This document shows positions 6,921 to 24,592 of a stretch of DNA of 32,000 bases, piece after piece. The stretch spans positions 1,078 through 33,077 of the forward strand of contig NZ_JBMGJC010000002.1 of NCBI RefSeq assembly GCF_048984525.1, given 5' to 3'. The DNA is from Pelotomaculum propionicicum (GTDB lineage: Bacteria > Bacillota > Desulfotomaculia > Desulfotomaculales > Pelotomaculaceae). Made by a program: the position numbers and the translations under genes. The notes below the pieces were generated by a model, which had not been told where the DNA came from, made no database searches, and saw nothing but the letters and a program-made list of their open reading frames with translations. Numbering within the stretch: position 1 is the stretch's first letter; each line of letters opens with the position of its first letter.

Positions 6921-7262
6921 CTATTTTAGCTTATATCTGGAAGCTATATTTTCAATTTTTTCCCAAAGCACCTTTATCTCTTCCGGAGATCTTCCTTCTT
7001 TTTCCCATTCATTAATAACCTTAATGTAATGAACAATAATATCCATGTACTTTGAAGGAGTTAAAATGTTGGTTCTCCCGAGTAAATAGTCAGTACTGAC
7101 ATTGAAGTAGTCCGCTATTCTTTGAAGTGTTGCATAATCAGGTTCCCGTTGTCCTATTTCATACATCGATAATGCGCCTCTAGATATTTTAAGTATTTTT
7201 GCAAGTTTAATTTGGGTTAATTTCTTTGATTTTCTTAAGGAAATGAGCCTTTTTTTAAACAT
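6921..7262 (-). CDS. XRE-family helix-turn-helix repressor-like protein, divergent from the tail cluster
   Basis: LTQIKLAKILKISRGALSMYEIGQREPDYATLQRIADYFNVSTDYLLGRT is a canonical HTH_XRE. GAGGG RBS is 6 nt before ATG 7262. Its position matches xre of PBSX. Confidence 0.8.
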   Translation of the reverse strand: MFKKRLISLRKSKKLTQIKLAKILKISRGALSMYEIGQREPDYATLQRIADYFNVSTDYLLGRTNILTPSKYMDIIVHYIKVINEWEKEGRSPEEIKVLWEKIENIASRYKLK

Positions 7263-7305
7263 TATCAACCCTCACTAATTCGCTAAAATACGACAATATA
7301 TTTCA

Positions 7306-7469: not shown

Positions 7470-7570
7470 ATCTTTTGGAGTTAAATCAACTAGAAATACA
7501 TAACCGGTAGTTGGACAGGATTGTGGAGTACAGCTTGAAGCTGGCGGTTAAAACAGTCTGCATGATAAGG
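7470..7570 (+). pseudogene. Ghost 1: decayed copy of the last ~100 nt of the activator gene
   Basis: tagaaatacataaccggtagttggacaggattgtggagtacagc.. aligns with 8583-8630 (tagaaatacatttacccggtggtgggacagaattgtagagtacacgg..). The reading frame is broken. Confidence 0.5.
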
Positions 7571-7591
7571 TTGAAAAATTTTTAGTTTTTA

Positions 7592-7670
7592 TCTGCACGG
7601 TGCCGCAAGAGTTAAAAGCCGATCCATAATGCTATTAAGGGAGCTGCCGCCAAGGCGGCTTTATTGTATA
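7592..7670 (+). promoter_or_regulatory. Conserved box/promoter-like element, copy 1
   Basis: TCTGCACGGTGCCGCA (7592-7607), 17 nt, CATAAT (7625-7630). Then hairpin GCCGCC/GGCGGC (7646-7659) followed by CTTTATTGT. Confidence 0.55.
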
Positions 7671-7981
7671 CCAAATTTTTTATATTTTCATCAGTATAAA
7701 GCTTTAATAACGGAAAAGAACGTGAAAATATAAAAACCTATTGATAGGATATTACCATTTTGGTAATATATTATATGTATAAAGAACATATGTTCGATCT
7801 CAAGTGTAGGACTTTTACTTATCCCGGGATAATTCCTGTTCCTTGTATTACATTCAAAAAGTAGTACAAGGGCTATAAATAGGTAACTAAAAACATTAAT
7901 AAGAAGTATTTGATAATAGAGCATGTTTCTGTTTACGGGGCTTAGCTAATAGAACTAATAAAACTAAGAGCGCGAAATTAG

Positions 7982-8004
7982 GCGCGGACATGGTATCCGC
8001 GCCC
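7982..8004 (+). other. Isolated GC-rich hairpin in the AT-rich spacer upstream of the activator gene
   Basis: GGCGCGGA-catggta-TCCGCGCC is a perfect 8-bp stem. The following U-tract is weak, so its function is uncertain. Confidence 0.3.
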
Positions 8005-8172
8005 AATCTTTACTGAAACGGATAGATAATTCAAGACACTCAGCTTCGCTCAAATAAGTTATTTATTCGCTAAAACAGATTGGCTAGGCGTCTTCAACAA
8101 AGGGTAATACTTTGGCCAGCACGGCTAAAAAGACAGGCCTTAACAAACGAAGCTTTAAAAGGAGGCAGATAA

Positions 8173-8664
8173 ATGGAGGTAGCTCTTTTTGAAAGTGAAA
8201 TACGGGAAGATAATAAAATCGTGTCAGCCTGGCTTCTGTACTATCCTGAGCGAAGAAAGGAATACTGGCGCCGGAGAGAAGAGATAATCCACAACTCTGC
8301 CCCCCTTTATAATAGCGTGCCCGGCGGGAAAAATAAAATAGGAGATCCTACCGGGAGAAAGGGCCAGAAGTTGGCGGATCTCCAAGAAACCGAACGATGG
8401 CTGGAACTGGTGGAAGAAGTAGAGCGGCGACTGTCTTGGAAAATGCAAGTCTTTTTGAACCTCCGCAGGGAGTATCGGCATGCCAGGGGACGACAGGGGT
8501 GGACGGCGGCAGTACAGTGGAGGTTTTCACATGAAGTTGCCGAGCGGTTGGGGAAGAGACCGGAGGATACATGGGTTGAGAGTAGAAATACATTTACCCG
8601 GTGGTGGGACAGAATTGTAGAGTACACGGTAAGATTGGCTGCAAAAAACGGTTTACTATGTTAG
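8173..8664 (+). CDS. RinA/ArpU/Xpf-type sigma-like late-gene transcriptional activator
   Basis: 163 aa. It shows the N-terminal Y..ERRKEY pattern, a central G(D)PTG..G patch and a C-terminal HTH-like SRNTFTRWWDRIVEYTVRLAAKNG. AAGGAGG RBS. It sits where xpf sits in PBSX. Confidence 0.7.
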   Translation: MEVALFESEIREDNKIVSAWLLYYPERRKEYWRRREEIIHNSAPLYNSVPGGKNKIGDPTGRKGQKLADLQETERWLELVEEVERRLSWKMQVFLNLRREYRHARGRQGWTAAVQWRFSHEVAERLGKRPEDTWVESRNTFTRWWDRIVEYTVRLAAKNGLLC

Positions 8665-8691
8665 GTTTTAGAATTTGTTCTGTTAATTTAT

Positions 8692-8775
8692 TTCTGCACT
8701 GTGCCACAATAGGTAAAAACCGATCAATAATTGTTATTAAGTAAGCCGCTGCCTAGGCGGCTTTGGTATTTTTAT
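8692..8775 (+). promoter_or_regulatory. Conserved box/promoter-like element, copy 2
   Basis: TTCTGCACTGTGCCACA (8692-8708), 17 nt, AATAAT (8726-8731). Then hairpin AAGCCGC-tgcctag-GCGGCTT (8743-8763) followed by TGGTATTTTTAT. Confidence 0.55.
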
Positions 8776-8796
8776 GTTTATTGCAGGTGGTTAGAA

Positions 8797-8960
8797 TAAC
8801 AGTGAGCAGGGGAAGTGTTCCCTGGAGATAGCTGCTTGGCTGGGACAATAGCCGGAGGATGAATTGGTGGAGAGTAGTACATATTAAAACAATGGCAAGA
8901 CAGTATTTTGGAGTACGGGGTGGAACTGGGAACAACGAGGCAGTCTCGTTTTAGTGTAGA
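8797..8960 (+). pseudogene. Ghost 2: decayed copy of the last ~160 nt of the activator gene
   Basis: ..gctgcttggctgggacaatagccggaggatgaattggtggagagtagtacatatt..ttttggagtacgggg.. aligns with 8536-8630 of the intact gene. It contains in-frame TAG and TAA. Confidence 0.55.
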
Positions 8961-8980
8961 TAAATTATAAAAAATTTTAT

Positions 8981-9062
8981 TCTGCACAGTGCCACAAAGG
9001 AGAAAAGTGGATTTAATATGATAGCAGGGAGCCATCCGATAGGAGGATGGTTATTTTTATTA
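8981..9062 (+). promoter_or_regulatory. Conserved box/promoter-like element, copy 3
   Basis: TCTGCACAGTGCCACA (8981-8996), 17 nt, TAATAT (9014-9019). Then hairpin CCATCC-gatagga-GGATGG (9032-9050) followed by TTATTTTTATT. Confidence 0.55.
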
Positions 9063-9070
9063 GAGTAATG

Positions 9071-9099
9071 ACAGAGCTGGGTTAAATGGCTCTGTTTTT
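9071..9099 (+). terminator. Terminator-like hairpin just downstream of element copy 3
   Basis: ACAGAGC-tgggttaaatg-GCTCTGT followed by TTTTTA. Confidence 0.45.
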
Positions 9100-9294
9100 A
9101 CTTGTTGAGGTGGTGCTGGCAAAATGATATAAGAAAGCAGCAATCTATATGGATCCTGGTGCGAATCAAATCTTCGTTAATATCCTGGATTAATAATGCC
9201 ACAGGCCTGTCGGTTACTTCTAACAGTGGAGATATTAAGATACAACGGCAGGCTACCGACTCAAAAATTTTAACTCTAGAAGGAGGGAAGACAA

Positions 9295-9669
9295 ATGCCG
9301 TTTACAACTGCAACAGCGAATAAGATTCTAGACAAGATCCTGCGCGGTGTTGATTTTACTCCAGCAACAAACCTCTATATAAGTCTCCATACTGCTGACA
9401 GTGGGGATAATGGGGCAAACGAAGTAACTGGTGGGAGCTATGCTCGTCAAGCTATTACCTTTAACGCTGCTAATAGCAAACATGCCGATAATCCGTCTCA
9501 AATTGAGTTTGCCGGAATGCCGGCCTGCACTATAACTCATGTCGGTCTTTGGAGTGCATCAACCCTAGGAGATTTCTGGTGGGGCGGAGACCTTACCGCA
9601 AGCAAGACTCTGAATGCAGGAGATACCTTACGGTTTCCAGCTGCGGATGTTGACGTTAATCTTGTATAG
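9295..9669 (+). CDS. Small phage structural-module protein, function unknown
   Basis: GAAGGAGGG RBS. At 124 aa, its pattern (..ILDKILRG...LYISLHTAD..G.NEV.GGSYARQ.I.F....) is one I have seen in phage virion/tail-fibre neighbourhoods but cannot name. Confidence 0.55.
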   Translation: MPFTTATANKILDKILRGVDFTPATNLYISLHTADSGDNGANEVTGGSYARQAITFNAANSKHADNPSQIEFAGMPACTITHVGLWSASTLGDFWWGGDLTASKTLNAGDTLRFPAADVDVNLV

Positions 9670-9704
9670 GACGATAAGACGTCCCCAATATAGGGGTGAG
9701 TTAA

Positions 9705-11051
9705 ATGCCAAGTCAATCGAAAAGTGCGGGCAGCGCAGTGAGCGATACAGGTGTCTCGCCTTATACAGACCAAGCATGGGTAAATCCTAGTTATATTACT
9801 GCCGATGACTCCAACTACGCATCTATAACATCAAACCAATTCGATATAGGTAAATATTCCCAAAGGATGTTTGCTTACAACTTTGGTTTTAGTATTCCAT
9901 TAAATGCCACTATAGAAGGTATACTAGTTGAGATCAAAAGATATTGTGGTTCTGGTAGTGTTGCAGATGATTATATCTACCTGAATTCAACCGGGGTGGT
10001 AGGAAATAACAAGAGCGCGGGTGCTTCTTGGCCAGGGATAGAACAGTATAATTCTTTCGGAGGAAGCACCGATCTCTGGGGCTGGTCAAACTCTTCTCCA
10101 AGTGCTGTAAATGCTAATAACTTCGGTGTTCATCTAGCCTGCCACGCTACATCTAACAACAGTGATATTTATGTAAACCATGTAAGAATTATAATTAATT
10201 ATACAGAAGAACCAATGGTTGTTACTGGTGCCGCAAGTCTTACAGGTCAAGGCAATGTTTCAGCACAGGGGTATGCACCAGTCATAGGCTCTTCTATAGA
10301 AATTGCAGGGCAGGGAGACTTATCATCTGGTAGTATTAAAGTCCGGCAAGGATCTGTAACAGTAGATGGTACAGGAGCTCTCAATGGAACAAGTAATCTA
10401 GTTAAAAACGGATTTGCGAATCTCGAAGGGCAAAGTTATCTTTCTGGAGACGGAATAGATATCGCGGAAGGTGAAATCCAGTTTTCCGGCCAGGGCGATA
10501 TTACCGGGACTGGAATTCACATCATTAATGTAATAGCTTATCTTGAGGGAATCAGTACCCTAGAGGGTTTTGGAAATCAGATATTAGTAGGTTATGCTCA
10601 AATAGACGGTTCAGGTAACTTACAGGCAACAAGTGAAATGGGGAATTTGGATATGACATCACTTTGGGAGATCCAGAATGCGATTTATACAATCTTAACA
10701 AACGACTTAATTCTAATGGGAAAAATCACAGGTGTTTTTGACAATGTTCCTAGCGGCCAGTCCTATCCATATGTAGTAATTGGTGAAGCTAAAGAAACGT
10801 CGGTAGATAACTTTGGCAAGCAGGGCCGGGAAGCGACAACCACATTACACATATGGAGCCAGGCTACCAGTTTTGAAGAACCACTCAGTATACTTGATGA
10901 TTTAAACCGGTTGCTCGATAGAGCAAACCTTAACCTCACCCGTTTTGTTACGATACGCTGTGGGTATGATTCAGCTGAAACCATTCGCGATCCTGACGGG
11001 ATAAGGCGACATATCCCGGCAAAATACAAAATATTAGTTGAGGAGGTATAA
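9705..11051 (+). CDS. Fusion protein: unknown beta-rich N-domain + Gly-rich repeats + C-terminal DUF3168-like tail-completion domain
   Basis: C-terminal ~130 aa (..GVFDNVPSGQSYPYVVIGE...TLHIWS...RDPDG..H..AKYKILVE) matches the DUF3168 tail-completion pattern. Residues ~171-315 are ~18-aa G-x-G repeats (LTGQGNVS, IAGQGDLS, FSGQGDIT, IDGSGNLQ). Confidence 0.65.
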   Translation: MPSQSKSAGSAVSDTGVSPYTDQAWVNPSYITADDSNYASITSNQFDIGKYSQRMFAYNFGFSIPLNATIEGILVEIKRYCGSGSVADDYIYLNSTGVVGNNKSAGASWPGIEQYNSFGGSTDLWGWSNSSPSAVNANNFGVHLACHATSNNSDIYVNHVRIIINYTEEPMVVTGAASLTGQGNVSAQGYAPVIGSSIEIAGQGDLSSGSIKVRQGSVTVDGTGALNGTSNLVKNGFANLEGQSYLSGDGIDIAEGEIQFSGQGDITGTGIHIINVIAYLEGISTLEGFGNQILVGYAQIDGSGNLQATSEMGNLDMTSLWEIQNAIYTILTNDLILMGKITGVFDNVPSGQSYPYVVIGEAKETSVDNFGKQGREATTTLHIWSQATSFEEPLSILDDLNRLLDRANLNLTRFVTIRCGYDSAETIRDPDGIRRHIPAKYKILVEEV

Positions 11052-11289
11052 CAAAATGTCAGCATTAGCCGATATAATGGGAAGGTTATGGTTGGCACAT
11101 ATACAGTGGCGGAAATTTCTATGAAGTATATGAGTTTATCTACAGTCTGAGCACCTTTAGGGGTGCTTACATATTAGAGATAAGCTAAGCTACAGGGGGT
11201 GGCTGGTTTAACGGTGTATCGGTAACATGCCTTCAGGCGGTTTGTGCTATATTTTCCCCGACAGCAAATGAAAATAATTACCTGAGGAG

Positions 11290-11400
11290 GGTGGCCAAGC
11301 AGGTTAGCGCTTTATAGCTTCTACCACGGTCAAGCCTAACTGGGGCAACCAGAAACTGTTATAAAAATATAACAACTTGGGCCGGAATAGGTAGGTTATT
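11290..11400 (+). pseudogene. Fragment of an xkdN-like tail chaperone gene in an ORF-free spacer
   Basis: 11324-11357 is 33/34 identical to 15019-15052 inside the intact xkdN-like gene. Weaker similarity covers 11300-11395 vs 15000-15090. Translation (ASTTVKPNWGNQKLL*) hits stops. Confidence 0.6.
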
Positions 11401-11679
11401 TGTTTGCGTCCTGCTTGCTGAAAACAGTCAACTCTATTGATGTGTTGTTCGACTGTCTGATTTAAAATCAGCCTCAAGACGACTGTTCGTCAAGGAAAAT
11501 TCTCAAACACGAATTGGACGTATAAATGCTATTTAGTGACTTTAGCAGCCATGGGCGGATATGAGATGTTCTCAGATCCGAGAGCACAAAAGCAAAAGTT
11601 GTGGTAGTTACATCTCCTCTATTAAGGGATGTATCATATGCTCGTTAAAAAGCTTAAGAATTTGTACTTAAAAAATTTT

Positions 11680-11752
11680 TCTGCACGGTGCCACATGAGG
11701 GAAAAAGCGACCCATAATGCTATTAAGGGAGACTCCACCAAGGCCTTGGTGT
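11680..11752 (+). promoter_or_regulatory. Conserved box/promoter-like element, copy 4 (immediately upstream of the main structural operon)
   Basis: TCTGCACGGTGCCACA (11680-11695), 17 nt, CATAAT (11713-11718). Then hairpin CACCAAGG/CCTTGGTG (11736-11751) with no U-tract after it. The 11834 start is about 80 nt downstream. Confidence 0.6.
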
Positions 11753-11833
11753 CTATAACTGTAAGGAAGGGTGGTGAGAAAAGGTATGGGGGGGAAACGT
11801 TGGAAGGAACCTTGAAAGGAAGGTTGAGATAAC

Positions 11834-12664
11834 ATGACTATAATGATTGCTAAAGAAATAGCACAATATTTACAAGCTATGGGGGAGGGAACGCTAAACA
11901 CAAATATTTTTGTGGATATACAACCAGACGCGCCAGACAACATCCCCTTCCTTACCGTTTACGACAAAGGTGGAGTCTCTCCTCAGGACCCGCCTGAAAA
12001 TTGGCGCGAGTTGTATATCCAGGGACGGAACATTGATCACCAGGATGGCTACGACCGTATCTGGCGCATATTAAACCTAATTTTACGTCCCACAGCTGGT
12101 TTTATAGAAGTTGGAACAAATAAATACACAGCCCAACTCCAAGAATTACCATCTATGTCAGGCCGGGATCTTCAAAACAGGTATTTGTTCGGATTTCGGG
12201 TAATCATTCGTAGTGTTAGCGATATTTCGACGGGTGATGAATGGCTTGACACACTTGCAAGTTGGACCGGGACAATATTAACGGGCTGGACGGTATATAA
12301 AGTTTGGCAGGGCAATAACAGGCCGTCCGTTACCTGGCGTTTGTCCACTGTGCAGGTGACGGAAAAGGCTAAAGCTGTGTTCGAGGTAAGAAAGAAGTAT
12401 ACCGGTGAGGTACTGGGCAATACAACATACGAATTGGTTTTCGGCACAACAAAGTTAGTTCAGGAATTGGGAAGTACTATTAAACTGACGCTGGACGCAT
12501 TAAACAAGCGGTACCTGACGGTCAGCACCCCGACAGCGGATTTGCGGGAAGATTCTTTGACTGCCGGGCAGGTATCCGTGGTTTTGAGCAGGCTGACGAG
12601 CAGACCGTCGGAAGAAGCACCGATTATGGCGGGAGTGCATCATAAAGGGATAATTATAAATTAG
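11834..12664 (+). CDS. Neck/tail-terminator-type protein (databases often label this family 'minor capsid protein') with an extra C-terminal half
   Basis: The N-terminal ~130 aa (IAKEIAQYLQAMGEGTLNTNIFVDIQPDAPDN..VYDKGG..) fits the family found just upstream of tail genes. Residues ~135-276 are additional. Confidence 0.5.
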   Translation: MTIMIAKEIAQYLQAMGEGTLNTNIFVDIQPDAPDNIPFLTVYDKGGVSPQDPPENWRELYIQGRNIDHQDGYDRIWRILNLILRPTAGFIEVGTNKYTAQLQELPSMSGRDLQNRYLFGFRVIIRSVSDISTGDEWLDTLASWTGTILTGWTVYKVWQGNNRPSVTWRLSTVQVTEKAKAVFEVRKKYTGEVLGNTTYELVFGTTKLVQELGSTIKLTLDALNKRYLTVSTPTADLREDSLTAGQVSVVLSRLTSRPSEEAPIMAGVHHKGIIIN

Positions 12665-12677
12665 CGAGGTGGTTAAA

Positions 12678-12881
12678 ATGGCTGGCAGAGGTAAAAAAAA
12701 TAATGTTGCAACCATAATTCCCGTATACCCCCGGGAAGAGCTTCTGGCCAAGTCAGAAGCTCTTTTTGGTGTAAAGCCGGAGGTTCTTCACGGGGCTCTG
12801 CACGGTGATGTCCGCGCGGAGTTTCCGTTGGAGGAAGTAAAAAGTATGATTAAATCATTTTTAAAAAGGAGGATTAGCTAA
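12678..12881 (+). CDS. Small conserved phage protein, function unknown
   Basis: GAGGTGG RBS 5 nt before ATG 12678 and a TAATG overlap with the sheath start. The ..ALFGVKPEVLHGAL....EFPLEEVKSMIKSFLKR pattern recurs in Firmicute phage morphogenesis modules. Confidence 0.5.
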   Translation: MAGRGKKNNVATIIPVYPREELLAKSEALFGVKPEVLHGALHGDVRAEFPLEEVKSMIKSFLKRRIS

Positions 12882-14347
12882 TGGCAGGAGGAAAATGGTC
12901 TCCCACTGAGCTGCCGGTATTACCAGGCTTCTATCTCAACTTTCAGGCGGCGGCCCTGGCCGCAATCAAGGCGGGTTCGCGGGGCACGGTGATTGCACCG
13001 GTGAAGGCGCACTGGGGCCCGGTGCGGCAGTTCGTTGAGGTGACAAGCGAAGCGGGCGCGACTGACGCCTATACCGCTGACGTGACAAACGGGGCTACCG
13101 CCTACAACACGCTAAGATTCGCCCTGCTGGGCGGGGCCAGCAAGATACTGGCCTACCGGCTGGCGGACAGCAATGCGGCGGCAGCCACGGTGACGCTGCA
13201 GGACACCAACGGGACGCCGGCGAACGTGCTGCGGCTGGACGCGAAATATCCCGGCGCGAGGGGCAATAGCTTTAAGGCGACGGTACAGGTGAACGCGTTG
13301 GACGGCAACAAGAAGGATATCTTGCTGTTCGAGGGGAGCGCACTTTTACGGACGTTCACATTCGACAGCGGAACCGTCCAGGCGGCGGTGGATACGGTGA
13401 ACGGAGATATAGGTAACAAGTGGGTAACGGCCACCAAGCTGGCGGATGGAACGGGTGTCCTCGCCAATGTGACCAATTCTCCCTTTACGGGGGGCAACTC
13501 GGGAATTGCAACGGTTATGTCTGACTACATCGACGCCCTGGCTGCGTTTGAAACGCAGGAGTTCAACCTGCTGACACTGGACGGAGTATATGATCCGGCC
13601 ATCCAAACCAGCGTGGTTTCCTGGGTGAGCCGGGTGCGTGACGAGGGTAAGGGCGTAATAGCTGTCCTAGGCGGTTCGGCAGCGGATGATACGGCCGCGG
13701 ACGCGGTGAACAAGGCGACTACGCGCAGCGTGGGCTTCAACCATGAGGGCGTGGTCAACGTGGGCACCGGCGTGGTGCTGAACGGCGTGAGTTACTCCAG
13801 CGCCCAGACGGCAGCCTACGTAGCCGGGCTGATTGCGGGGCAGAAGCTCAGCGAGTCGACGACCTACGCCGCTACTCCCTTTGACGACGTGACCAGGCGC
13901 TGGACCAAGAGCGAGATGGAGGAGGCGGTACTGAACGGGGTGTTTCTGCCTTTCCACGATGGACGCATGGTTAAGGTGCTGCGAGGGATGAACTCGCTGG
14001 TGACCCTTCGCCAGGGACAGAACAACAGTTGGAAGAAGATCCGCACAATCAGGGTGATGGACGCCGTCAATAGCGATTTGGTGAAAACGGCGGAGGATAA
14101 CTATATCGGCAAGGTGAACAACACCGAAGAAGGCCGCCTGGCGCTGATCGGGGCCTGCAAGCAGTACATGCTGACACTGGCCCAGGGGGGCGTGATCGAG
14201 GCGATTGACTACGACGTCTACGAGGACCCGGATTATTACGGTACTGGACATCCACTCACACCGGAGCCGGACCAGGTCTACTTGAAGTGGGAAGCCCGTC
14301 TGACCGATGTGATGGAACTGATCTTCAGCACATTTATAGTGAAATAG
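12881..14347 (+). CDS. xkdK: Contractile tail sheath protein (XkdK-like)
   Basis: 488 aa, GC-rich, directly upstream of the tube gene. The N-terminal ..PGFY.NF....A...GSRG.V..P and overall pattern are typical of PBSX/SPbeta-type sheaths. Confidence 0.85.
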   Translation: MAGGKWSPTELPVLPGFYLNFQAAALAAIKAGSRGTVIAPVKAHWGPVRQFVEVTSEAGATDAYTADVTNGATAYNTLRFALLGGASKILAYRLADSNAAAATVTLQDTNGTPANVLRLDAKYPGARGNSFKATVQVNALDGNKKDILLFEGSALLRTFTFDSGTVQAAVDTVNGDIGNKWVTATKLADGTGVLANVTNSPFTGGNSGIATVMSDYIDALAAFETQEFNLLTLDGVYDPAIQTSVVSWVSRVRDEGKGVIAVLGGSAADDTAADAVNKATTRSVGFNHEGVVNVGTGVVLNGVSYSSAQTAAYVAGLIAGQKLSESTTYAATPFDDVTRRWTKSEMEEAVLNGVFLPFHDGRMVKVLRGMNSLVTLRQGQNNSWKKIRTIRVMDAVNSDLVKTAEDNYIGKVNNTEEGRLALIGACKQYMLTLAQGGVIEAIDYDVYEDPDYYGTGHPLTPEPDQVYLKWEARLTDVMELIFSTFIVK

Positions 14348-14361
14348 GGAGGTGTGATTAA

Positions 14362-14772
14362 ATGGCTTTGGACGCAAGCAGGGCAATACTGGGTACCTAC
14401 GGGTACCTTTACATTGACGGTCAATGGCAGACCAACATAAACCATCTCGAAGCGACAGTGGAGATGGAGAAAAGGGAACTGCTGCTTTCGGGTGACGCCT
14501 GGAAGCGGCACAAAAAAGGCCCTATGAAAGGGACGGGCACCATGAGCGGTTTCAAGGTGACCAGCGAGATGTTACAGAGGGGCTTCGGCAAGTTCGAGAT
14601 CATCTCCAAGCTGGACGACCCGGAGTCCTACGGGCACGAACGGATCAGGCTGAAAAATGTGATGGTTGACGGACTGCCTCTGGCTAATTGGAAGGCCGGC
14701 GAAGAAGTGGTGGAGGAGATCAAATTCACCTTTGAGGAATACGAGCTGCTCGACCCGATTGTAGCCGGTTAG
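14362..14772 (+). CDS. xkdM: Tail tube protein (XkdM-like)
   Basis: 136 aa. GTYGYLYIDGQ....HLEATVE..K.E.....D.W..HK..G.KGTG.MSGFKVTSE is XkdM/DUF2001-like. Its position is immediately after the sheath. Confidence 0.85.
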   Translation: MALDASRAILGTYGYLYIDGQWQTNINHLEATVEMEKRELLLSGDAWKRHKKGPMKGTGTMSGFKVTSEMLQRGFGKFEIISKLDDPESYGHERIRLKNVMVDGLPLANWKAGEEVVEEIKFTFEEYELLDPIVAG

Positions 14773-14783
14773 GAGTGGAGACA

Positions 14784-15188
14784 GTGAGCTTTGAAAAAAT
14801 GACTGAAGATCAAATACTCCAGCGTCTTCTTGAAACTGATACTGTGCCGGAGCGGACGGTTGTAGTCCCAAGGCTGAATATTCCTGTGACTCTAAGAGGT
14901 CTTACCGGAAAACAGGTCTTCAGTATCAGAGAGCGCTGCTCCGAGAGGAATGAAAGACGGGGGCGTGTTACTGAGCGCCTGGATGAAGAACAGTTTAATG
15001 TTGCGCTGATAGCGACTGCCACGGTCAAGCCTGACTGGGGCAACCAGAAACTTATCAATAAATTCAACGCTTCGGGACCGGAGGAGGTTATCAAGCGCAT
15101 ACTTCTCGCGGGAGAACTTTCGGCGCTCAGCAACATAGTACTCGACCTGTCCGGCTTTAATATCAGTCTGGAAGACGTAAAAAACTGA
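14784..15188 (+). CDS. xkdN: Tail assembly chaperone (XkdN-like), zero-frame product
   Basis: Position between tube and TMP-slot gene. XkdN-like pattern (..VVVPRLNIPVTLRGLTGKQVFSIRERC..). AGGAG RBS 8 nt before GTG 14784; the track start at 14775 overlaps the RBS. Confidence 0.75.
   Translation: MSFEKMTEDQILQRLLETDTVPERTVVVPRLNIPVTLRGLTGKQVFSIRERCSERNERRGRVTERLDEEQFNVALIATATVKPDWGNQKLINKFNASGPEEVIKRILLAGELSALSNIVLDLSGFNISLEDVKN
15179..15185 (+). promoter_or_regulatory. -1 programmed ribosomal frameshift slippery heptamer A AAA AAC
   Basis: The zero frame reads GTA AAA AAC TGA, so the heptamer is in X XXY YYZ register one codon before the stop. The -1 frame stays open for a further 60 codons. 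Confidence 0.7.
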
Positions 15189-15367
15189 TTAGCTCCGGGG
15201 GACTGGCAGGGGCGCTGCACGCCATTTGGGTGCGGCACCACCTGCGCCCCGGAGAGTTCTGGCGGCTGTCCAGGGGAGAGCAGCTTTTTTTGCTTGCGAG
15301 TATTTCCCTGGAACTTGAGGCTGAGGTAAAGGCCAGGAAGGGGGTGCCACGACGTGGCCGGAGATAA
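15185..15367 (+). CDS. -1 frame extension of the XkdN-like chaperone (long isoform C-terminus)
   Basis: The -1 frame reads LISSGGLAGALHAIWVRHHLRPGEFWRLSRGEQLFLLASISLELEAEVKARKGVPRRGRR*. It ends at TAA 15365-15367, overlapping the next gene's start, as in G/GT-type chaperone pairs. Confidence 0.6.
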   Translation: MISSGGLAGALHAIWVRHHLRPGEFWRLSRGEQLFLLASISLELEAEVKARKGVPRRGRR

Positions 15368-16385
15368 AAAAGATGCCATAGATCTATATATTAATCAAGA
15401 ACAGCGGCTTAAGGAGGCTTCAAACTATCCGGGTTATGACATTCCCTTTTGGGATTTGTCTGAAAATGAAATTTTTAAAGACGTAATATCAAGCTTTATA
15501 TCTGATATTTATATTGATCAAATGAAGGAATTTATCTATGCGGGAAAATCGCCAAGTAAGTTAATTTCACTTTTAGGACCGCTGGGTTTTGCTACTGAAG
15601 TGTGTGAAACAAGTAATGATATCGCTAAGATGGTAGAATATAGTGATGTTAAATATTATGGTGATTATGAAAAAGGAAAAGAATTTGCTGGACTTTTTAT
15701 GAAGACAGCAATGTTTAAGCCTTTAGGTATGTATCTTACAAAGAGGATCCGCATTCCATTTTTAAGTACTGTTTTGCAACATGGTATAGAGCAAGTTGGA
15801 TATAAGTTTGGAAAATATGTGTACGATCACCCGGCTTTTCCTCCAGAAGCTGCTATTGGTTCGGAATCTCTTCCCAATGGGTTGGAATGGGAAGATTTAT
15901 TGAAGCTTCCCGCTCCTGTATATTCGCTTTCTTGGAATAAGGAAGATTTATTAAATCAAGAAACTTTTCGTTCTCTTTCCCCTAATATGGAAGAATTATT
16001 AAACGAAGAGTATTTAAAATCGCTTTCCCCTAATACGGAGGAATTATTACAGCCTTATGTTCTACCTCCCGAGGAGGCGATGGGCGATGAACAGGCTTTT
16101 CGTTCTCTTTCCCCTAATATAGAAGAATTATTAAACCAAGAAACTTTTCGTTCTCTCACCTTTGATAACGAAACCCTTGGCGACGAAGAGATTTTCCGTT
16201 CTACTCTCCAGCCGGAATCGGACCATGGCGATCAATACACCGAGCAGGAAGTTAATAACCAGAATGTTACTGTTAACATCGCTGTGGAAGGGCAAGGGGA
16301 CGAAAACGGGATCGTCAATAAGTTAGTGGCCAGATTGGGCGAGGTATTTGAAAACATGAACACATCTGGTTTTGGTGTTGTATAA
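15354..16385 (+). CDS. Protein in the tape-measure slot: unusually short (343 aa), AT-rich, with tandem repeats
   Basis: It lies between the frameshifting chaperone and the LysM XkdP-like gene. GGAAGGGGG RBS before GTG 15354. It has hydrophobic segments and an FRSLSPN-EELLN repeat block. I see no clear TMP homology by eye. Confidence 0.5.
   Translation: MAGDKKDAIDLYINQEQRLKEASNYPGYDIPFWDLSENEIFKDVISSFISDIYIDQMKEFIYAGKSPSKLISLLGPLGFATEVCETSNDIAKMVEYSDVKYYGDYEKGKEFAGLFMKTAMFKPLGMYLTKRIRIPFLSTVLQHGIEQVGYKFGKYVYDHPAFPPEAAIGSESLPNGLEWEDLLKLPAPVYSLSWNKEDLLNQETFRSLSPNMEELLNEEYLKSLSPNTEELLQPYVLPPEEAMGDEQAFRSLSPNIEELLNQETFRSLTFDNETLGDEEIFRSTLQPESDHGDQYTEQEVNNQNVTVNIAVEGQGDENGIVNKLVARLGEVFENMNTSGFGVV
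15942..16210 (+). repeat. In-frame tandem/interspersed repeats inside the TMP-slot gene
   Basis: ttttcgttctctttcccctaatat(g/a)gaagaattattaaac occurs at 15965-16004 and 16097-16136, plus degenerate copies. At protein level: ETFRSLSPNMEELLN / YLKSLSPNTEELLQ / QAFRSLSPNIEELLN / ETFRSLTFDNETLG / EIFRSTLQPE. Confidence 0.85.
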
Positions 16386-16420
16386 AATTTTTATCAAAAA
16401 ATTGAGGAGGAGTGCCTCCT

Positions 16421-17059
16421 ATGGATTTTTATTTAATAGACCCAGCCGGACCGGAGTTCCATTTTCCGGTCAACCCGGCGAAGGTGACCATCCGGCGGGA
16501 GAAGCTTACGGACGTTGTAAATATAATTAACCTGGGTCAAGTGGAGTTTCCGCATGGGGAGAAGGTGAAAGAGATCACCTTTTCTTCATTTTTTCCCAAA
16601 GAATACGACTCCAGCTACTGCCGCTACCCGGATATCCACGACCCGCAGGAGGCGATGAATAAGCTCACCGCCTGGATGATGAGCAAGAAGCCTGTGCGAC
16701 TGATGATCACGGAGACGATTGTCAACGTCCTGGTACTGGTAAGTGCCCACACGACTACCTTCAGGGGTGGAGAACCGGGGGACGTCTACTTTGACCTGAC
16801 CTGTCACGCCTGGCAGGAACTGAAAGTGAGGACGGCGGCGGAAATTTCGGTCGCCCTGCAGGGTGCCGAGCCGAGGCCGGACACCAGGCCGGTGCCGGCG
16901 GTATACGAGGTGAGGACAGGCGATTCGCTCTGGGCTATAGCGAAGATGCAGTACGGCGACGGCAACAGGTGGCGGGAGATTTACCAGACCAACGAGGGGA
17001 TTATCGGGCCGGACGCCGACCTGATCCTGCCGGGCCAGAAGCTGGTGATGCCGCAATGA
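16421..17059 (+). CDS. xkdP: XkdP-like tail protein with C-terminal LysM domain
   Basis: C-terminal YEVRTGDSLWAIAKMQYGDGNRWREIYQTN...LILPGQKLVMP is a LysM domain. GAGGAGG RBS 10 nt before ATG 16421. Confidence 0.85.
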   Translation: MDFYLIDPAGPEFHFPVNPAKVTIRREKLTDVVNIINLGQVEFPHGEKVKEITFSSFFPKEYDSSYCRYPDIHDPQEAMNKLTAWMMSKKPVRLMITETIVNVLVLVSAHTTTFRGGEPGDVYFDLTCHAWQELKVRTAAEISVALQGAEPRPDTRPVPAVYEVRTGDSLWAIAKMQYGDGNRWREIYQTNEGIIGPDADLILPGQKLVMPQ

Positions 17060-18054
17060 GTGACTTTACGCTGAACAGGTACGAGGTGGTGCTGGCTAAT
17101 CAATACTTCCTGCGGGAACTAGTGGAAAGGATCACCCTGGAGGACTCGCTGGATGAGATCGCCTACCGGGCCTCGGTCAGGCTGGTGGTGACGGACGACT
17201 TCCAGCAGATTGGGATCGCTCCGGGTCAGGAGATAAGAGTGTCCGGGGTGCCCTTCGGGGGTAGTGGTATGGTGTACCTGCTGCACCCGGGAATGGTATG
17301 GCAGTGCGATAGTGAAACGCGGGGGCAGAAGCATATTAATGTAACTGTTTACGACAGGACGATATACCTGGCCAAGAGCGAGGACGAGTACCTGTTTCCG
17401 GCCGGGCAGACGTCCACTCAAAGGTTGGAGCGATATGCCTCGGACTGGGGACTGGAATTGGGCCAGGTGGCCGACACGGGGGTCGCCCTGGCCAAGGCGG
17501 TGTACCGCGCCCGGCCCATTTACTCTATGATTATGGCGGACTTAAAAGAAACAGCCGTCAAGGGAGGGGACATGTATCGTCCCCGGATGACGCCGGATGG
17601 TCTGGGGTTGGTTAAGCTAGGAAGTAACGAAACGGTCTGGGCCTTGGAGGCGGAGCGCAACGTGGAGGAAATCAGGCAGCGGCGCAGCCTGGAAGGAGCG
17701 GTTACTCAGGTAAAGGTGCTTGGGAACGCACCGGTGGAGGAACGTTCTCCGGTGCTGGCACTGGTAACCGGCGAGACGGATCGGTACGGGACACTGCAGA
17801 AGGTGCACAGCGACCCCAAACTGACCGATGCCGGGGCGGCACGTTCGGCTGGTGAGAAGAAGCTTTGCGGGATGCAGGAAACTATAACTGTGGCGGGTCT
17901 GGATATTAATACGATTCGTGCCGGCGACAAGGTCAAGCTGAATAACATTGACCTGCTGGTGAACTCGGTGCGGCATGAACTGGGCGCACCGGGCAGGATG
18001 ACCCTGGAACTGGCGGGAGAAGAGTATGTGAGGAGGCGTTACTATAGTGACTAA
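17056..18054 (+). CDS. xkdQ: XkdQ-like tail/baseplate hub protein (gpD-type)
   Basis: ATGA overlap with the xkdP-like stop. It is ~330 aa and sits between XkdP-like and XkdR-like genes, with a typical XkdQ/YqbQ pattern. Confidence 0.75.
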   Translation: MSDFTLNRYEVVLANQYFLRELVERITLEDSLDEIAYRASVRLVVTDDFQQIGIAPGQEIRVSGVPFGGSGMVYLLHPGMVWQCDSETRGQKHINVTVYDRTIYLAKSEDEYLFPAGQTSTQRLERYASDWGLELGQVADTGVALAKAVYRARPIYSMIMADLKETAVKGGDMYRPRMTPDGLGLVKLGSNETVWALEAERNVEEIRQRRSLEGAVTQVKVLGNAPVEERSPVLALVTGETDRYGTLQKVHSDPKLTDAGAARSAGEKKLCGMQETITVAGLDINTIRAGDKVKLNNIDLLVNSVRHELGAPGRMTLELAGEEYVRRRYYSD

Positions 18055-18478
18055 TCCTTACAAGGAACTTGCCTCAGTAATAGAGAAGCGCATGGCAGGC
18101 CACGCCGCACGGGCTGTCTCCGGGACTCCGTGCGAACTGGGGACGGTTACAGCGGGCGGTTTGAAGCTGGACTCGTTTAAATACGAAATAAAGGACTACC
18201 TGGTGGCGGACTGGCTGATAAGACAGGAAATCCCGCAGCCGAGAAGGGTGATCAAAACTGCTGCCCCTGTAAACGCAGACGGCAGCGATATACCAAATTC
18301 AACTGTGTATTCCCATTTCACCCGCATTGACTACCAGGGAGGCGGTGGAGCAGACAAGATCGAGGATGTCCGCCATAACCTGTCAGTCAGCCTGAAGCCG
18401 GGGGATCGGGTTTTGGTTATCCCGGTGAACGGCGGTCAGGACTTCGTAGTAATTTGCAAGGTGGTGCCAAATGCCTAA
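18047..18478 (+). CDS. xkdR: XkdR-like (DUF2577) baseplate/spike-associated protein
   Basis: The C-terminal ..LKPGDRVLVIPVNGGQDFVVICKV ending is characteristic of DUF2577. It overlaps both neighbours. Confidence 0.7.
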   Translation: MTNPYKELASVIEKRMAGHAARAVSGTPCELGTVTAGGLKLDSFKYEIKDYLVADWLIRQEIPQPRRVIKTAAPVNADGSDIPNSTVYSHFTRIDYQGGGGADKIEDVRHNLSVSLKPGDRVLVIPVNGGQDFVVICKVVPNA

Positions 18479-18926
18479 CTTATTTCCTATAGAAATAGTG
18501 AACCCGCTCCCTGAAATAACGGGAACAGGCGCCGGCCAGGTTCGTTTCGGCAGGAGCTGGCGCTTTGACTTCGACAGCGGGGACTTCGTACTGACGCCGG
18601 CAGGCCAGGTGGCCGAGTGCGGTAACGAGGAGGCCTGGTTGGAGTGGTGCCGAAAGGCGCTGATGACCGCCAGGTACCGCTACCTCGTTTACTCGCGGAA
18701 CTATGGGCAGGAGTTTGAAGACCTTATAAGCCGGCATCTGAACCGGGCGGGGAACGAAAGTGAAATCAAGCGAATAACAACCGAGTGCTTGAAGGTAGAC
18801 CCGAGGACATCCGGCGTGGACAACTTTACCTTCACCTGGGAGGAAGACACATGCCAGTTTACATGTGAGGTAACCAGTGTGCTCGGCGGCAGCGGGACTA
18901 TGAATGGAATGGTGGTGATCGGATAA
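18471..18926 (+). CDS. xkdS: XkdS-like (DUF2634, gp25/gpW-like) baseplate wedge protein
   Basis: ..EAWLEWCRKALMTARYRYLVYSRNYGQEFEDLI......E.KR.ITECL..DPR pattern. Confidence 0.8.
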   Translation: MPNLFPIEIVNPLPEITGTGAGQVRFGRSWRFDFDSGDFVLTPAGQVAECGNEEAWLEWCRKALMTARYRYLVYSRNYGQEFEDLISRHLNRAGNESEIKRITTECLKVDPRTSGVDNFTFTWEEDTCQFTCEVTSVLGGSGTMNGMVVIG

Positions 18927-18927
18927 G

Positions 18928-20520
18928 ATGGCTGTATTGCCGGAATACTTGACTGAGCAAACAGAGGAAGCAATAAAACAGAGAATCCTTGACGCCCTGC
19001 CGGACGATCTTGACAAGACGGAGGGGAGCTACATCTGGGACGCGGTCTCCCCGGTGGCGATTGAATTGGCGCTGGCGGCCATATGGGCAAAGGAGGTCCT
19101 GCGCAGGGGTTTCGCTTCGACGACTTTTGGCGATTACCTGGACCTGCGCTGCGAGGAGCACGGCCTGACCAGGATAGCGGCGGTGAAGGCTACAGGGACG
19201 ACTGCAAAGGGTAACTCGTTGACGATTACGGGAACGCCGGGAAAAGTAAACGCAGGGCTGAGGGTTGCTACCCAGGCTAACCCTGTTACGAATACTCCTT
19301 CTATTGAGTTTTTAACTACCACGGAGTGTAATATCGAAAGTGGCGGAACTGGAACTGCCGATATTGAGGCCGTGGTGGCGGGGACAGGCGGCAACGTACC
19401 AGCCGGGGCTATCAGCGTGGTGGTGGACCCCTACGTGGGGGTCACGGGAGTGACGAACTCCGCCCCGATTACCGGGGGGCTGAACACGGAAACCGATGCT
19501 GCGCTCCTGGCCAGGTACCTTCAAAAAGTGAGGTCCCCCTCGGCGGGAGGGAATAAGGCCGACTACTTGAACTGGGCGCTGGAAGTGGCTGGAGTCGGGG
19601 GAGTCGCGGTAACCCCGGTGAGGGACGGCCCGGGGACGGTGAGCGTGGCGATCATCGGGACGGACAAGGCCCCGGCGAGCCAGACCCTGGTGGATGCTGT
19701 ACAGAACTATATCGCCCCGTCCTGGATAAACGAAAAAGAGGCCGAAAACATGACGATCGGCGGCTTTGGAGTTTTTCCCGACAATCAGCCGGACGACACA
19801 GGGAGTTCAGTCAAGATAGTGTACGACACTTCCGGGATTGGAACGGTAACTCATACAAATGTAAACAGCATCCTACAACAGCCCGGCATCTGGCAGGCCC
19901 GGAACCATCTCAAGGTTGACAATATCTCAGGAGTCAACGACCTGCTGGAAGTAGGGATGTATAATGTTTCTGGCGCTGTTTGGTGTAAGACCAGGCCGGA
20001 AGGATCGACTGACGCCAAGATCACGCTTAAGGCAAGTGACCTTGGTACAACCTTTACAGATAAGATCGTGGAGTTTTATTGGAACGGGTCGGATCAAATC
20101 GAACTACGGATAAAACGCCTTGCACCCGATACCACGGCCGTGGAGGTATGTTTTGACCGGACGGTGTACCGTTCCACATTCAGTAAGGACACCGGGGAAG
20201 GTAAGGCGCCGGTGGGCGCCAGGGTAACGGTGGAAAAGGCGACCGCGGTTTTGATTAATGTCTCAGCTACGCTAACCATTATGCCGGGTTACAACTCCAC
20301 CAGCGTGAAGGCGGCAGTGGAGCAAAACATAGAGGACTACATCAGGGGCCTGGCGTTTACTGAGGACAACGACGTGCGCTACGTGCGGATCGGAAACGCC
20401 ATCCTGGATACGCCGGGCGTGCAGGACTACACCGGGTTTACGGTGAACGGGGGTACGGCCAACATTACTGTGGGTGCCCAGGAGGTGGCGGTGAAAGGGA
20501 CGGTGAGCCTGCTGCCATGA
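18928..20520 (+). CDS. xkdT: Baseplate J-like protein (XkdT-like) carrying a ~160-aa internal insertion
   Basis: N-terminal ..YLTEQTEEAIKQRILDALPDDLDKTEGSYIWD.. and C-terminal ..VRIGNAILDTPGVQDY.. are Baseplate_J-like. Residues ~265-425 (nt ~19720-20203) interrupt the conserved YIAP...APVGARVTV junction. Confidence 0.8.
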   Translation: MAVLPEYLTEQTEEAIKQRILDALPDDLDKTEGSYIWDAVSPVAIELALAAIWAKEVLRRGFASTTFGDYLDLRCEEHGLTRIAAVKATGTTAKGNSLTITGTPGKVNAGLRVATQANPVTNTPSIEFLTTTECNIESGGTGTADIEAVVAGTGGNVPAGAISVVVDPYVGVTGVTNSAPITGGLNTETDAALLARYLQKVRSPSAGGNKADYLNWALEVAGVGGVAVTPVRDGPGTVSVAIIGTDKAPASQTLVDAVQNYIAPSWINEKEAENMTIGGFGVFPDNQPDDTGSSVKIVYDTSGIGTVTHTNVNSILQQPGIWQARNHLKVDNISGVNDLLEVGMYNVSGAVWCKTRPEGSTDAKITLKASDLGTTFTDKIVEFYWNGSDQIELRIKRLAPDTTAVEVCFDRTVYRSTFSKDTGEGKAPVGARVTVEKATAVLINVSATLTIMPGYNSTSVKAAVEQNIEDYIRGLAFTEDNDVRYVRIGNAILDTPGVQDYTGFTVNGGTANITVGAQEVAVKGTVSLLP

Positions 20521-21092
20521 GTGAGTATCCGGTAACATCAGCAAGGGGGCAGAAGATGACCGGTTACCTGCCGTGCTACTATCAGTCTTCGAGGGTGATG
20601 AGGTCGATCGTCCAGGGCCAGGGGAGCGAGTTGGACAAGCTGAGACAGGCGCTGGACGAGACCCTCGACCAGTTTTTCGTGAACACGGCGACATGTCGCC
20701 TAGGGGACTGGGAGGCCGAACTCGGCCTGCCGGTGGCCCCGGCGCAGCCTGAGACTGAACGGCGCGACAAGATCATGTCGAAGCTGCGGGGAATGGGCAC
20801 CTGCACGATCAAGCTGGTGAAGCAAGTGGCGGAGAGCTACGACGCAGGTGCCGTGAACGTGGCAGAAGACTTCACGGGTTACCTGGTAATAGTGAAGTTT
20901 GTGGACACGCGTGGATTGCCGCCGAACATAGAAGACTTGATGGCGGCAGTCCGGGACATAGTGCCGGCGCACCTGGAAATCCTGTACGAGTACAGTTATT
21001 TCCTGTGGGACGATCTTGACGAAAAGGTTTGGACCTGGGATCAGCTCGATACGCTTGGGTTGATGTGGGATCAACTGGAGGTATACGTTTAA
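20517..21092 (+). CDS. xkdU: XkdU-like (DUF2313, gpI-type) tail-fibre adaptor, copy 1
   Basis: ATGA overlap with xkdT-like. ..YLP.YYQSSRVM..I...G.E.DKLRQALDETLDQFFVNTAT..L.DWE.ELGL pattern. Confidence 0.75.
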   Translation: MSEYPVTSARGQKMTGYLPCYYQSSRVMRSIVQGQGSELDKLRQALDETLDQFFVNTATCRLGDWEAELGLPVAPAQPETERRDKIMSKLRGMGTCTIKLVKQVAESYDAGAVNVAEDFTGYLVIVKFVDTRGLPPNIEDLMAAVRDIVPAHLEILYEYSYFLWDDLDEKVWTWDQLDTLGLMWDQLEVYV

Positions 21093-21186
21093 ATCCGGAA
21101 AATACTCGAAGCCAGTAATTTAAGCCGCTTAAATAGCGTCATGCTTTATTTTAAAGTTCTGTAACAGTAGGTGGTGAGCAAATAAC

Positions 21187-21762: not shown

Positions 21763-21765
21763 GAG

Positions 21766-22998: not shown

Positions 22999-23012
22999 GG
23001 AGCTAAAGATGG

Positions 23013-23050
23013 AAGCAGGGAGGAGGTTCTCTTGCTTCCTGTTTTTCTGT
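23013..23050 (+). terminator. Rho-independent terminator inside the tail cluster, after fibre set 1
   Basis: GGAAGCAgGGAG-gaggtt-CTCtTGCTTCC followed by TGTTTTTCTG. Confidence 0.65.
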
Positions 23051-23225
23051 AAGACGAGATAAAGCTGAAACATTGATAGTGGATGATTCTGCTTCATTAT
23101 AAAAGGTTATAAGGTACATACATTAAACCTGCAAAAGCCTTTGTGATGACTGATGCGAAGAACCGGACAAAAAATTTATTCGATGCTCTAATATTAATGT
23201 GGGATTTATTGGAGGTGAATGAATA

Positions 23226-23606: not shown

Positions 23607-23621
23607 GAAGGGGTGATCTAA

Positions 23622-24519: not shown

Positions 24520-24592
24520 GCTCATATATGGGCTAAAATGCGCAGTGAGGCTCCGGCTTTTAAAGGACTGATTATTCCTAGAGGTGATAATT

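Follow-up and report, generated by a model that had tools for sequence, protein, structure and literature searches.

We analysed a 32-kb stretch of the Pelotomaculum propionicicum genome (contig NZ_JBMGJC010000002.1), referred to below as the window, in which a short element recurs four times within what is probably an R-type tailocin with a PBSX-like contractile tail. The tailocin locus spans about 6.9–25.9 kb of the window and holds a repressor gene, a gene for a hypothetical protein of 163 amino acids (aa), a gp80-like and a tail-completion-like gene, and a block of tail and lysis genes. That late block encodes a tail terminator, sheath, tube, XkdN chaperone, LysM protein, YqbQ, sheath initiator, baseplate J protein, two Gp48-like proteins, a fibre, a holin and an amidase. 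No capsid, portal, terminase, integrase or replication gene was found among the genes of the element. Tail and lysis genes thus stand without head, packaging, integration or replication functions in a chromosomal context, which is the hallmark of an R-type tailocin. The flanks are thrC on one side and Mrr, SIR2 and rhomboid genes on the other, and the locus of the closest relative, L007, has the same layout. The four copies of the short element lie in the regulatory part of the locus, and we argue below that they are probably late promoters read by the 163-aa protein.

Four copies of one module

Each copy consists of a conserved 16-nt box, a spacer, a -10-like hexamer and a palindrome (Table 1). 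The box, TCTGCACNGTGCCRCA, has four exact matches in the window, all on the + strand. Allowing up to three mismatches adds a single site, which is on the minus strand and unrelated. Dinucleotide shuffles of the window give a mean of 0.83 box sites at that tolerance, and no exact copies. The distance from box to hexamer is exactly 17 nt in all four copies, with an AAAAG/AAAAC core in the spacer. The box is also the most conserved stretch between copies (88–94% identity, against 43–68% in the flanks). A sequence-only covariance model of the family's modules, described below, matches these four copies and nothing else in the window. The four-copy element, its spacers with their core and its hexamers had been described in a first, sequence-only reading of this DNA, which had also proposed the covariance-model check. 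That description holds, save that the box of copy 2 begins at 8693 and not at 8692.

The same reading took the element to be non-coding, and the data are consistent with this. Copy 4 does lie within an open reading frame (ORF) of 67 aa (11629-11832), which runs up to the start of the first tail gene; neither the other copies nor L007 have anything corresponding to it, and it is probably spurious. The whole window gave no covariance-model match in Rfam at gathering thresholds. An exact-box scan of IMG/VR returned 112 stretches, about a third of which are one unrelated conserved phage-contig sequence family; none carries the module or a hairpin, and the scan is uninformative on whether the box is a dispersed repeat.

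Table 1. Features of the regulatory region and late operon, in window coordinates
Feature	Position	Strand	Evidence or remark
Xre/RstR-like helix-turn-helix repressor gene, divergent from the regulatory region	6921..7268	-	
Decayed remnant of regulator 3' end before copy 1 (R-stop-LDRIVEYSLKLAVKT)	7491..7572	+	blastn, 73% identity to 8583-8764; tblastn, in-frame stop
Copy 1 box TCTGCACGGTGCCGCA, 13-bp dyad core CTGCAC-G-GTGCCG	7592..7607	+	exact match; orthologous copy in L007 at 1396
Copy 1 -10 hexamer CATAAT, 17 nt past box; predicted +1 near 7637 (TATT/A)	7625..7630	+	
Copy 1 hairpin, 9 bp, -14.7 kcal/mol, with U-rich tail, terminator-like	7640..7669	+	
Sigma-A-type promoter TTGATA-17-TGG-TAATAT (7741-7769), then GAACATATGTTC (7784-7795), upstream of regulator gene	7741..7795	+	promoter scan; conserved in L007
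163-aa regulator gene, WP_421070128.1, annotated hypothetical; all-alpha, predicted C-terminal helix-turn-helix	8173..8664	+	
Copy 2 box, 28 nt past regulator stop codon (the module's native position in the family)	8693..8708	+	exact match
Copy 2 -10 hexamer AATAAT	8726..8731	+	
Copy 2 hairpin AAGCCGC/GCGGCUU, -12.8 kcal/mol, with U tract, terminator-like	8743..8775	+	
Pseudogene remnant of second regulator copy before copy 3, residues about 115-145, with stops	8807..8916	+	tblastn, blastn
Copy 3 box	8981..8996	+	exact match
Copy 3 -10 hexamer TAATAT	9014..9019	+	
Copy 3 hairpin, -12.2 kcal/mol, z -3.3, then AUUUUUAUU, terminator-like	9030..9062	+	
Second, independent terminator-like hairpin directly past copy 3	9070..9106	+	terminator scan
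Copy 4 box	11680..11695	+	exact match
Copy 4 -10 hexamer CATAAT; predicted +1 near 11725, 109 nt before first tail gene (11834)	11713..11718	+	
Copy 4 palindrome CACCAAGGCCTTGGTG, a degenerate terminator that folds weakly and has no U tract	11736..11751	+	folding
Tail-only late operon, presumed driven from copy 4	11834..25883	+	

The module in relatives of the regulator gene

The same architecture stands beside a homologue of the 163-aa gene in about 15 diverged loci, which upholds the earlier proposal that the protein is the best candidate for reading the box. In at least 13 sequence-distinct lineages, the module lies directly past the homologue's stop codon, within 100 nt. Its parts follow one another in a set order: an A/T-rich stretch, gCTG-N7-CCRCAAG, 17 nt (16 in two lineages), the hexamer TAnnnT, two nucleotides and TATYR. 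Most lineages then have a GC hairpin and a U run, starting 0–17 nt past TATYR. A2 and T6 of the hexamer are invariant, and a TGn extension is present in 6 of 13 lineages. The covariance model, trained on 20 modules, finds three copies in L007 and one in each 20-kb phage locus, and it recovers the module of L004, which was outside the training set, at E 1e-4. The model misses the most diverged members, whose modules were recognised by eye; L148 and L150 show the same geometry on such inspection.

One locus separates the module from the gene. In L008 the regulator gene has a terminator of its own, and the module lies 3.8 kb away, directly before a terS-like gene, with a 14-bp hairpin of -25.3 kcal/mol followed by UUUUGUUAU. 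This arrangement indicates that the module is part of the late operon and that the hairpin is part of the module. We rejected the view of the hairpin as a mere terminator of the regulator gene, since it is kept so far from a separately terminated gene.

The 163-aa protein belongs to a sizeable family (36 clusters at 90% identity, 268 representatives at 50% identity) whose members are all named hypothetical. It has no match in Pfam, PHROG or NCBIfam, and 66 relatives scanned singly against Pfam gave none either. For the profiles of RinA/DUF1492 (PF05263/PF07374), ArpU and Sigma70_r4 in particular, neither the window protein (E<=1) nor the 66 relatives produced a match, and none of the 67 family members matches Sigma70_r2 or Sigma70_r4; RinA itself carries PF05263. 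Family profiles found no match among PDB sequences, and tblastn found no homologue of the protein in annotated phage genomes. Its AlphaFold model is confident (predicted local distance difference test score, pLDDT, 87.8) and all-alpha, and the N-terminal part comprises two long helices and a disordered linker with no recognisable sigma-2 domain. Foldseek returned nothing significant from PDB, the top weak matches (E>1) being sigma-4 domains of extracytoplasmic function (ECF) sigma factors. In BFVD, the fold matches are viral proteins labelled transcriptional activator, sigma-70 region 4, ECF sigma or DUF1492 (template modelling, TM, scores 0.3–0.6; E 3e-3 to 0.5), with TM 0.3–0.58 for those labelled sigma-4 or ECF. 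An hhalign comparison of the family with a RinA alignment is colinear over 116 columns and weak (E 0.029, probability 1.7%); with a single RinA sequence it was uninformative. Membership of the RinA/ArpU/Xpf group, as asserted in the sequence-only reading, is therefore not sustained by either the profile searches or hhalign.

On phage contigs, the homologues follow RusA or replication genes and precede terminase, portal and capsid genes, the slot of a late regulator: the order is RusA, regulator, TerL, portal and capsid in L006, RusA, regulator and terminase in L149, and similar in L010 and L008. Gene position thus supports a late-regulator reading of the protein, and a remote sigma-4-like late regulator is a plausible description of it.

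A probable dyad operator in the -35 position

The box has an internal symmetry. When complementarity of six base pairs was scored at every possible centre across 11 distinct box types, a single peak appeared exactly 26 bp upstream of the hexamer (4.09 of six pairs, versus 1.57 +/- 0.49 at 114 other centres), which marks the core of the box as a 13-bp dyad. Half-sites differ between lineages (CTGCAC, TTGTTC, CTGTCG, CTGGTA, CTGCTG and others), while the flanking CTG and CCRCAAG are shared. The predicted last helix of the regulator varies at S-R-x-T-F-x-x-W-W-x. Three lineages that are 59–65% identical overall share both an identical NTFTRWWD helix and an identical GCAC-N-GTGC core. Because helix and half-sites vary together, we argue that the predicted recognition helix reads the box. 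Because the core is a dyad, a dimer at about -38 is favoured over a monomeric sigma-4 domain at -35; with the -10 being sigma-A-like as well, a dimeric activator would fit better than a sigma factor reading a -35.

That second possibility was the one first put forward for this DNA: the 163-aa protein would be an alternative sigma factor of the RinA/ArpU/Xpf type, with the 3' half of the box (GTGCCACA) as its -35 and the hexamer as its -10. A 17-nt spacing is indeed typical of sigma-70-family promoters, and the asymmetric CCRCAAG flank is conserved just where a -35 would lie. The fold searches and the colinear, weak hhalign match to RinA lean the same way, with sigma-70 region 4, ECF sigma and DUF1492 viral proteins as the best named matches and ECF sigma-4 domains on top of the weak PDB ones. 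We nonetheless consider a sigma factor unlikely, since a monomeric sigma-4 domain does not require a dyad core, the -10 matches the housekeeping consensus with its TGn included, a sigma-2 domain is not recognisable in the N-terminal helices and linker, and the 67 family members lack any Sigma70_r2, Sigma70_r4, RinA or ArpU profile match. Recognition by a sigma factor is thus the weaker part of the original proposal, and an activator at an operator is the stronger reading.

The promoter itself is well supported by the comparison of loci. A conserved box in the -35 place at a fixed 17 nt from a -10 hexamer had been suggested from the window, and the same geometry recurs in diverged relatives. 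In L007 only 25 nt separate the end of the copy 3 hairpin from the ATG of the first tail gene. This places the promoter upstream of the hairpin, with the hexamer as its -10; a promoter downstream of the hairpin would have to fit into those 25 nt and was rejected. A conserved Y-R step 7 nt past the hexamer fits a start site. We also considered a second hexamer as the true -10 (TGn-TATTAA), but its T6 is not conserved and the TATY/R sequence fits better as the context of a start site.

Taken together, these comparisons make it probable that each copy is a late promoter read by the neighbouring 163-aa protein: an operator replaces the -35 of a sigma-A-type promoter, and a promoter-proximal terminator, degenerate in copy 4, follows. 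The protein would then stand for a family, so far unannotated, that regulates late genes in phages and tailocins and has a C-terminal helix-turn-helix resembling sigma region 4. The box would be its operator, with the 13-bp dyad core centred at about -38 in the -35 position, beside a host sigma-A-type -10 (TAnnnT, often TGn-extended) at the fixed 17 nt. The regulator, probably as a dimer, would bind the box and recruit or stabilise RNA polymerase at this site. The predicted start of transcription is the conserved TATY/R, 7 nt past the hexamer.

That the dyad serves instead as an operator for the divergent Xre-like protein or for LexA, which would shut several promoters at once and leave the 163-aa protein unrelated, is highly improbable. 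The half-sites co-vary with a helix of the 163-aa family, in phage relatives the module goes with the 163-aa homologue or with the late operon and lies many kb away from immunity regions, and the LexA-type box of this locus is a different sequence in a different place. Against these points stand only the typical overlap of dyads with promoters in Xre/cI repressor systems and the proximity of the repressor gene, 320 nt from copy 1.

Predicted promoter-proximal terminators

A GC-rich stem-loop followed directly by a U tract is present in copies 1, 2 and 3, and a terminator scan flags all three as intrinsic terminators (Table 1). Copy 4 departs from this pattern: its palindrome folds at -7.0 kcal/mol, no better than shuffled sequence (z = +0.7), and a U tract is missing. 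The thermodynamic fold of copy 1 is GGAGCUGCC/GGCGGCUUU, with 9 bp and a 5-nt loop; the stem first suggested for this copy, GCCGCC/GGCGGC, would leave a loop of 2 nt and was discarded. Across the family, the hairpins of most modules are stable (z down to -4.8) and run into U stretches. RNAalifold on a MAFFT alignment yielded three pairs only, the stems being unalignable by sequence, and we relied on per-sequence folds instead of a formal covariation score. The hairpins that the sequence-only reading had listed therefore exist, with a different stem in copy 1, and what it had called a covarying RNA structure under selection is more specifically an intrinsic terminator in copies 1–3 and a degenerate one in copy 4.

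Further terminators and RNA genes lie near some of the modules. In L006 (10838-10851 and 11209-11224) and L001 (10850-10867), strong co-directional intrinsic terminators stand past small ORFs, between the module and the terminase genes. In L026, genes for tRNA-Met and tRNA-Leu (1697-1858) lie directly downstream of the module and its hairpin. The tail operon of the window has no convincing internal terminator; a terminator-like site at 24626-24641 falls inside the holin coding sequence and was not counted.

In the proposed mechanism, the first 10–45 nt of RNA would contain the GC hairpin and U run as a built-in intrinsic terminator, or attenuator. Such an attenuator may silence lethal late genes against read-through and basal firing, and regulator-dependent transcription would have to pass it. 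Here lies an awkward point for an activator-operator module, as it would be paradoxical for a plain activator to launch transcripts that meet a terminator at about +30. Three ways out are possible. The terminator may be leaky and mainly block read-through from upstream; the hairpin may act as a 5' stabiliser; or the regulator may render polymerase terminator-resistant, by analogy with lambda Q.

Other observations weigh against the activator-operator module as well. The 163-aa protein has no significant match to a profile or a solved structure, and its label as a helix-turn-helix activator comes from weak fold matches, a weak hhalign alignment and gene position. Modules of the most diverged members are recognised by eye only. 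The modules of L004, L019 and L150 have no hairpin and that of copy 4 is degenerate, which indicates that the hairpin is not obligatory. Finally, the RinA-dependent start was mapped by rapid amplification of cDNA ends (RACE) to a site downstream of a terminator and not in the activator-binding block (PMC3753634, PMC3152322). The position of that start is a warning that the TAnnnT hexamer might not define the start here.

The third way out can be developed into an explanation of its own, which overlaps the activator-operator module and differs in the step that the protein controls. In a promoter-loaded antitermination of the lambda Q kind, sigma-A would fire the module promoters unaided, the built-in terminator would release RNAs of 30–45 nt, and the box-docked regulator would modify the polymerase that escapes so that it reads through this terminator and later ones. 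We regard this as possible, though not as the likeliest course. A terminator directly past the promoter in copies 1–3 and in most lineages, kept even away from the regulator gene in L008, is what such a switch would need; so are TGn-extended -10 elements that could permit firing independent of an activator. Constitutive firing is doubtful, however, in the 7 of 13 lineages that have no TGn and no -35 to compensate, and copy 4, L004, L019 and L150 lack a terminator altogether. Additional strong co-directional terminators stand before late genes (9070-9096 in the window; 10838 and 11209 before terS in L006; 10850 in L001), but the tail operon offers no convincing internal terminator, the site at 24626 being in coding sequence. 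The regulator gene sits immediately ahead of its target, as Q does ahead of PR'-tR' in lambda. The regulator, for its part, shows no fold similarity to any solved structure, solved Q proteins included (Foldseek against PDB), and the conserved TAT at -4 to -2 lies outside the transcribed region in which sigma-dependent pause elements are found. Published work on RinA adds a parallel: rinA and terS are separated by a terminator, read-through was not seen when RinA was missing, and RinA binds more than 155 bp upstream of the mapped start (PMC3753634, PMC3152322). One form of this idea, a promoter with a built-in terminator passable only by polymerase loaded with the regulator at the dyad box, and hence a Q-like switch run by a sigma-4-like or Ltr-like protein in Firmicute phages and tailocins, we hold to be possible but unlikely.

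History of the copies and proposed upstream control

Decayed pieces of the regulator gene precede copies 1 and 3, and the similarity of copy 4 to copy 2 starts right at the stop-codon position. The remnants imply that the copies arose by duplication or recombination of a unit made up of the regulator 3' end and the module. Since the duplication, the box has stayed 88–94% identical while the pseudogene parts have fallen to 45–67%, a difference that argues for selection on the box.

Copies 1–3 might also be functionless scars of this history, with a single copy of any importance (copy 4, or copy 3 in L007). The remnants before copies 1 and 3 invite that view, as do the single module of the phage relatives and the fate of copy 2 transcripts, which would meet a terminator and then a pseudogene. 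It is improbable all the same: the boxes are conserved where the adjacent pseudogene sequence is decayed, and L007 retains copies 1–3 with changes that preserve the hairpins.

What L007 does not have is the 2.7-kb segment between copies 3 and 4. Window positions 9063-11680 correspond there to 2620-2647; the segment, with copy 3 on one side and copy 4 on the other, holds the gp80-like gene, a gene for a 448-aa tail-completion-like protein and a stretch of about 630 nt (11052-11680) that is apparently non-coding. Its absence from L007 makes it look like a cassette that entered by recombination at the module.

Upstream of the regulator gene, a sigma-A-type promoter is followed by GAACATATGTTC, which we take to be the core of the Gram-positive LexA/Cheo box. 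GAAC-N4-GTTC occurs once in the window and once in L007, at the orthologous place. The motif and its conservation suggest that the regulator is probably under LexA/SOS control. In the cascade that we propose, the SOS response would lead to loss of LexA and to first synthesis of the regulator from the LexA-box promoter, and the regulator would then act on the box promoters. Copy 1 would provide positive feedback on the regulator; copy 2 would be the native module past the gene; copy 3, the module of the decayed second regulator copy, would head the gene pair at 9295-11051; and copy 4, its terminator features lost, would head the 14-kb tail and lysis operon. Copy 1 had earlier been thought to drive the activator gene. 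We keep it as a feedback promoter, while the LexA-box promoter probably starts synthesis.

Two further features of this region deserve mention. The leader of about 400 nt from the LexA-box promoter to the regulator start codon contains a strong hairpin at 7981-8003 (GGCGCGGA CATGGTA TCCGCGCC), conserved with L007 and without an Rfam match, along with other conserved blocks. Between the Xre-like gene and copy 1, at 7306-7358, divergent sigma-A-type promoters overlap: TTGACT-17-TATTAT on the + strand, which is conserved in L007, and TAGAAA-17-TATAAT on the - strand. The arrangement resembles an immunity switch, though a cro-like gene is not obvious.

Relation to known late regulators

The kind of late-activator system is known; the family to which we assign the regulator is new and unannotated. 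The closest parallel in organisation is the Ltr superfamily (RinA, ArpU, LtrA/Sigma70_r4, LtrB/DUF1492 and LtrC). There as here, a small protein gene ends the early or replication module just before terS, the cognate site lies directly distal to the gene's own stop codon with a specificity that differs by lineage, and a terminator separates the regulator gene from the late genes. For Ltr activators, the recognition sequence is immediately distal to the activator's own gene, a terminator has been inferred between the ltr gene and terS, and the RinA binding site is more than 155 bp upstream of the RinA-dependent start (PMC3753634, PMC3152322). In the present family the half-sites differ between lineages in the same way, and the module stays within 100 nt of the stop codon in the 13 or more lineages counted above. 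The family thus takes the position of an Ltr regulator, but it matches no Ltr profile and its hhalign match to RinA is weak; its site is a 13-bp dyad in fixed register to the -10, whereas Ltr sites are 7-nt direct repeats; and its module serves a tail-only element in three or four copies.

The rinA-terS spacer of phage 80alpha (L035, 2222-2407) can be laid alongside the module part by part. It contains TGGCAGT repeats, TATTAT-GA-TAGTG and a strong terminator, GGATTGGCT..AGCCAATCC TTTTTT, about 45 nt before terS. The order of parts is that of the present module, though the published start maps past the terminator.

Mor and C of phage Mu and MotA of T4 illustrate activators whose box replaces the -35 of a sigma-70 promoter. 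They share with the present module a good -10, the lack of a -35 and an activator site over the -35 region at a fixed spacing, and the Mor/C site is likewise a dyad. The 163-aa family, however, shows no sequence or fold relationship to these proteins, its site is centred at about -38 and not at -43.5 as for Mor/C, and an AsiA-like co-factor is not evident.

The lambda PR'-qut-tR' region, too, has a regulator gene directly upstream of the promoter, an intrinsic terminator close behind, a DNA site in the promoter and a long late operon. As judged from sequence alone, the window likewise holds a promoter with an intrinsic terminator and a regulator site within the promoter. The differences are several. 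The protein has no similarity to Q folds and no match among PDB sequences, in Foldseek searches of PDB or in Pfam. Its site lies at or upstream of the -35, whereas that of lambda lies between the -35 and the -10. The module has no transcribed -10-like pause element, its second TAT being at -4 to -2, and the terminator stands at about +30, against +60 to +194 in lambda.

The proposed circuit as a whole resembles those of PBSX (Xre/Xpf) and the R-pyocins (PrtR/PrtN with its P-box), in which an SOS-linked repressor gives way to a small positive factor and then to a late operon. The tail module has PBSX homologues in XkdN, XkdP, XkdQ, XkdS and XkdT. In contrast to the 163-aa protein, which has no sigma profile match, Xpf is recognisably sigma-like, and PBSX keeps head genes where the present element has none.

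Several uses follow from these assignments. A family that is hypothetical throughout (268 clusters at 50% identity) gains a probable function and a DNA site. The simple rule of position (just past the gene, a TAnnnT hexamer with a dyad 26 bp before it) can be used to annotate late promoters in phages and tailocins of the class Clostridia, and the paired variation of helix and half-site is a testable specificity code. For the host, a syntrophic propionate oxidiser, the analysis outlines a putative tailocin circuit that runs from a LexA box through the regulator to four modules. The conserved promoter-proximal terminator raises the question of whether, in Gram-positive phages, late activators also carry polymerase through terminators, and our literature search found no report of antitermination by Ltr-type regulators. 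Were the Q-like switch true, it might extend to the whole Ltr superfamily, whose members are now described as plain activators, because the 80alpha spacer has the same order of parts and the distance of more than 155 bp between the RinA site and start is unexplained.

Other features of the tail operon

Two minor observations concern the tail genes. Two tandem Gp48-like (XkdU-like) paralogues occupy 20517-21092 and 21187-21762, and a small RHS-repeat protein is encoded at 23226-23606, near the fibre genes.

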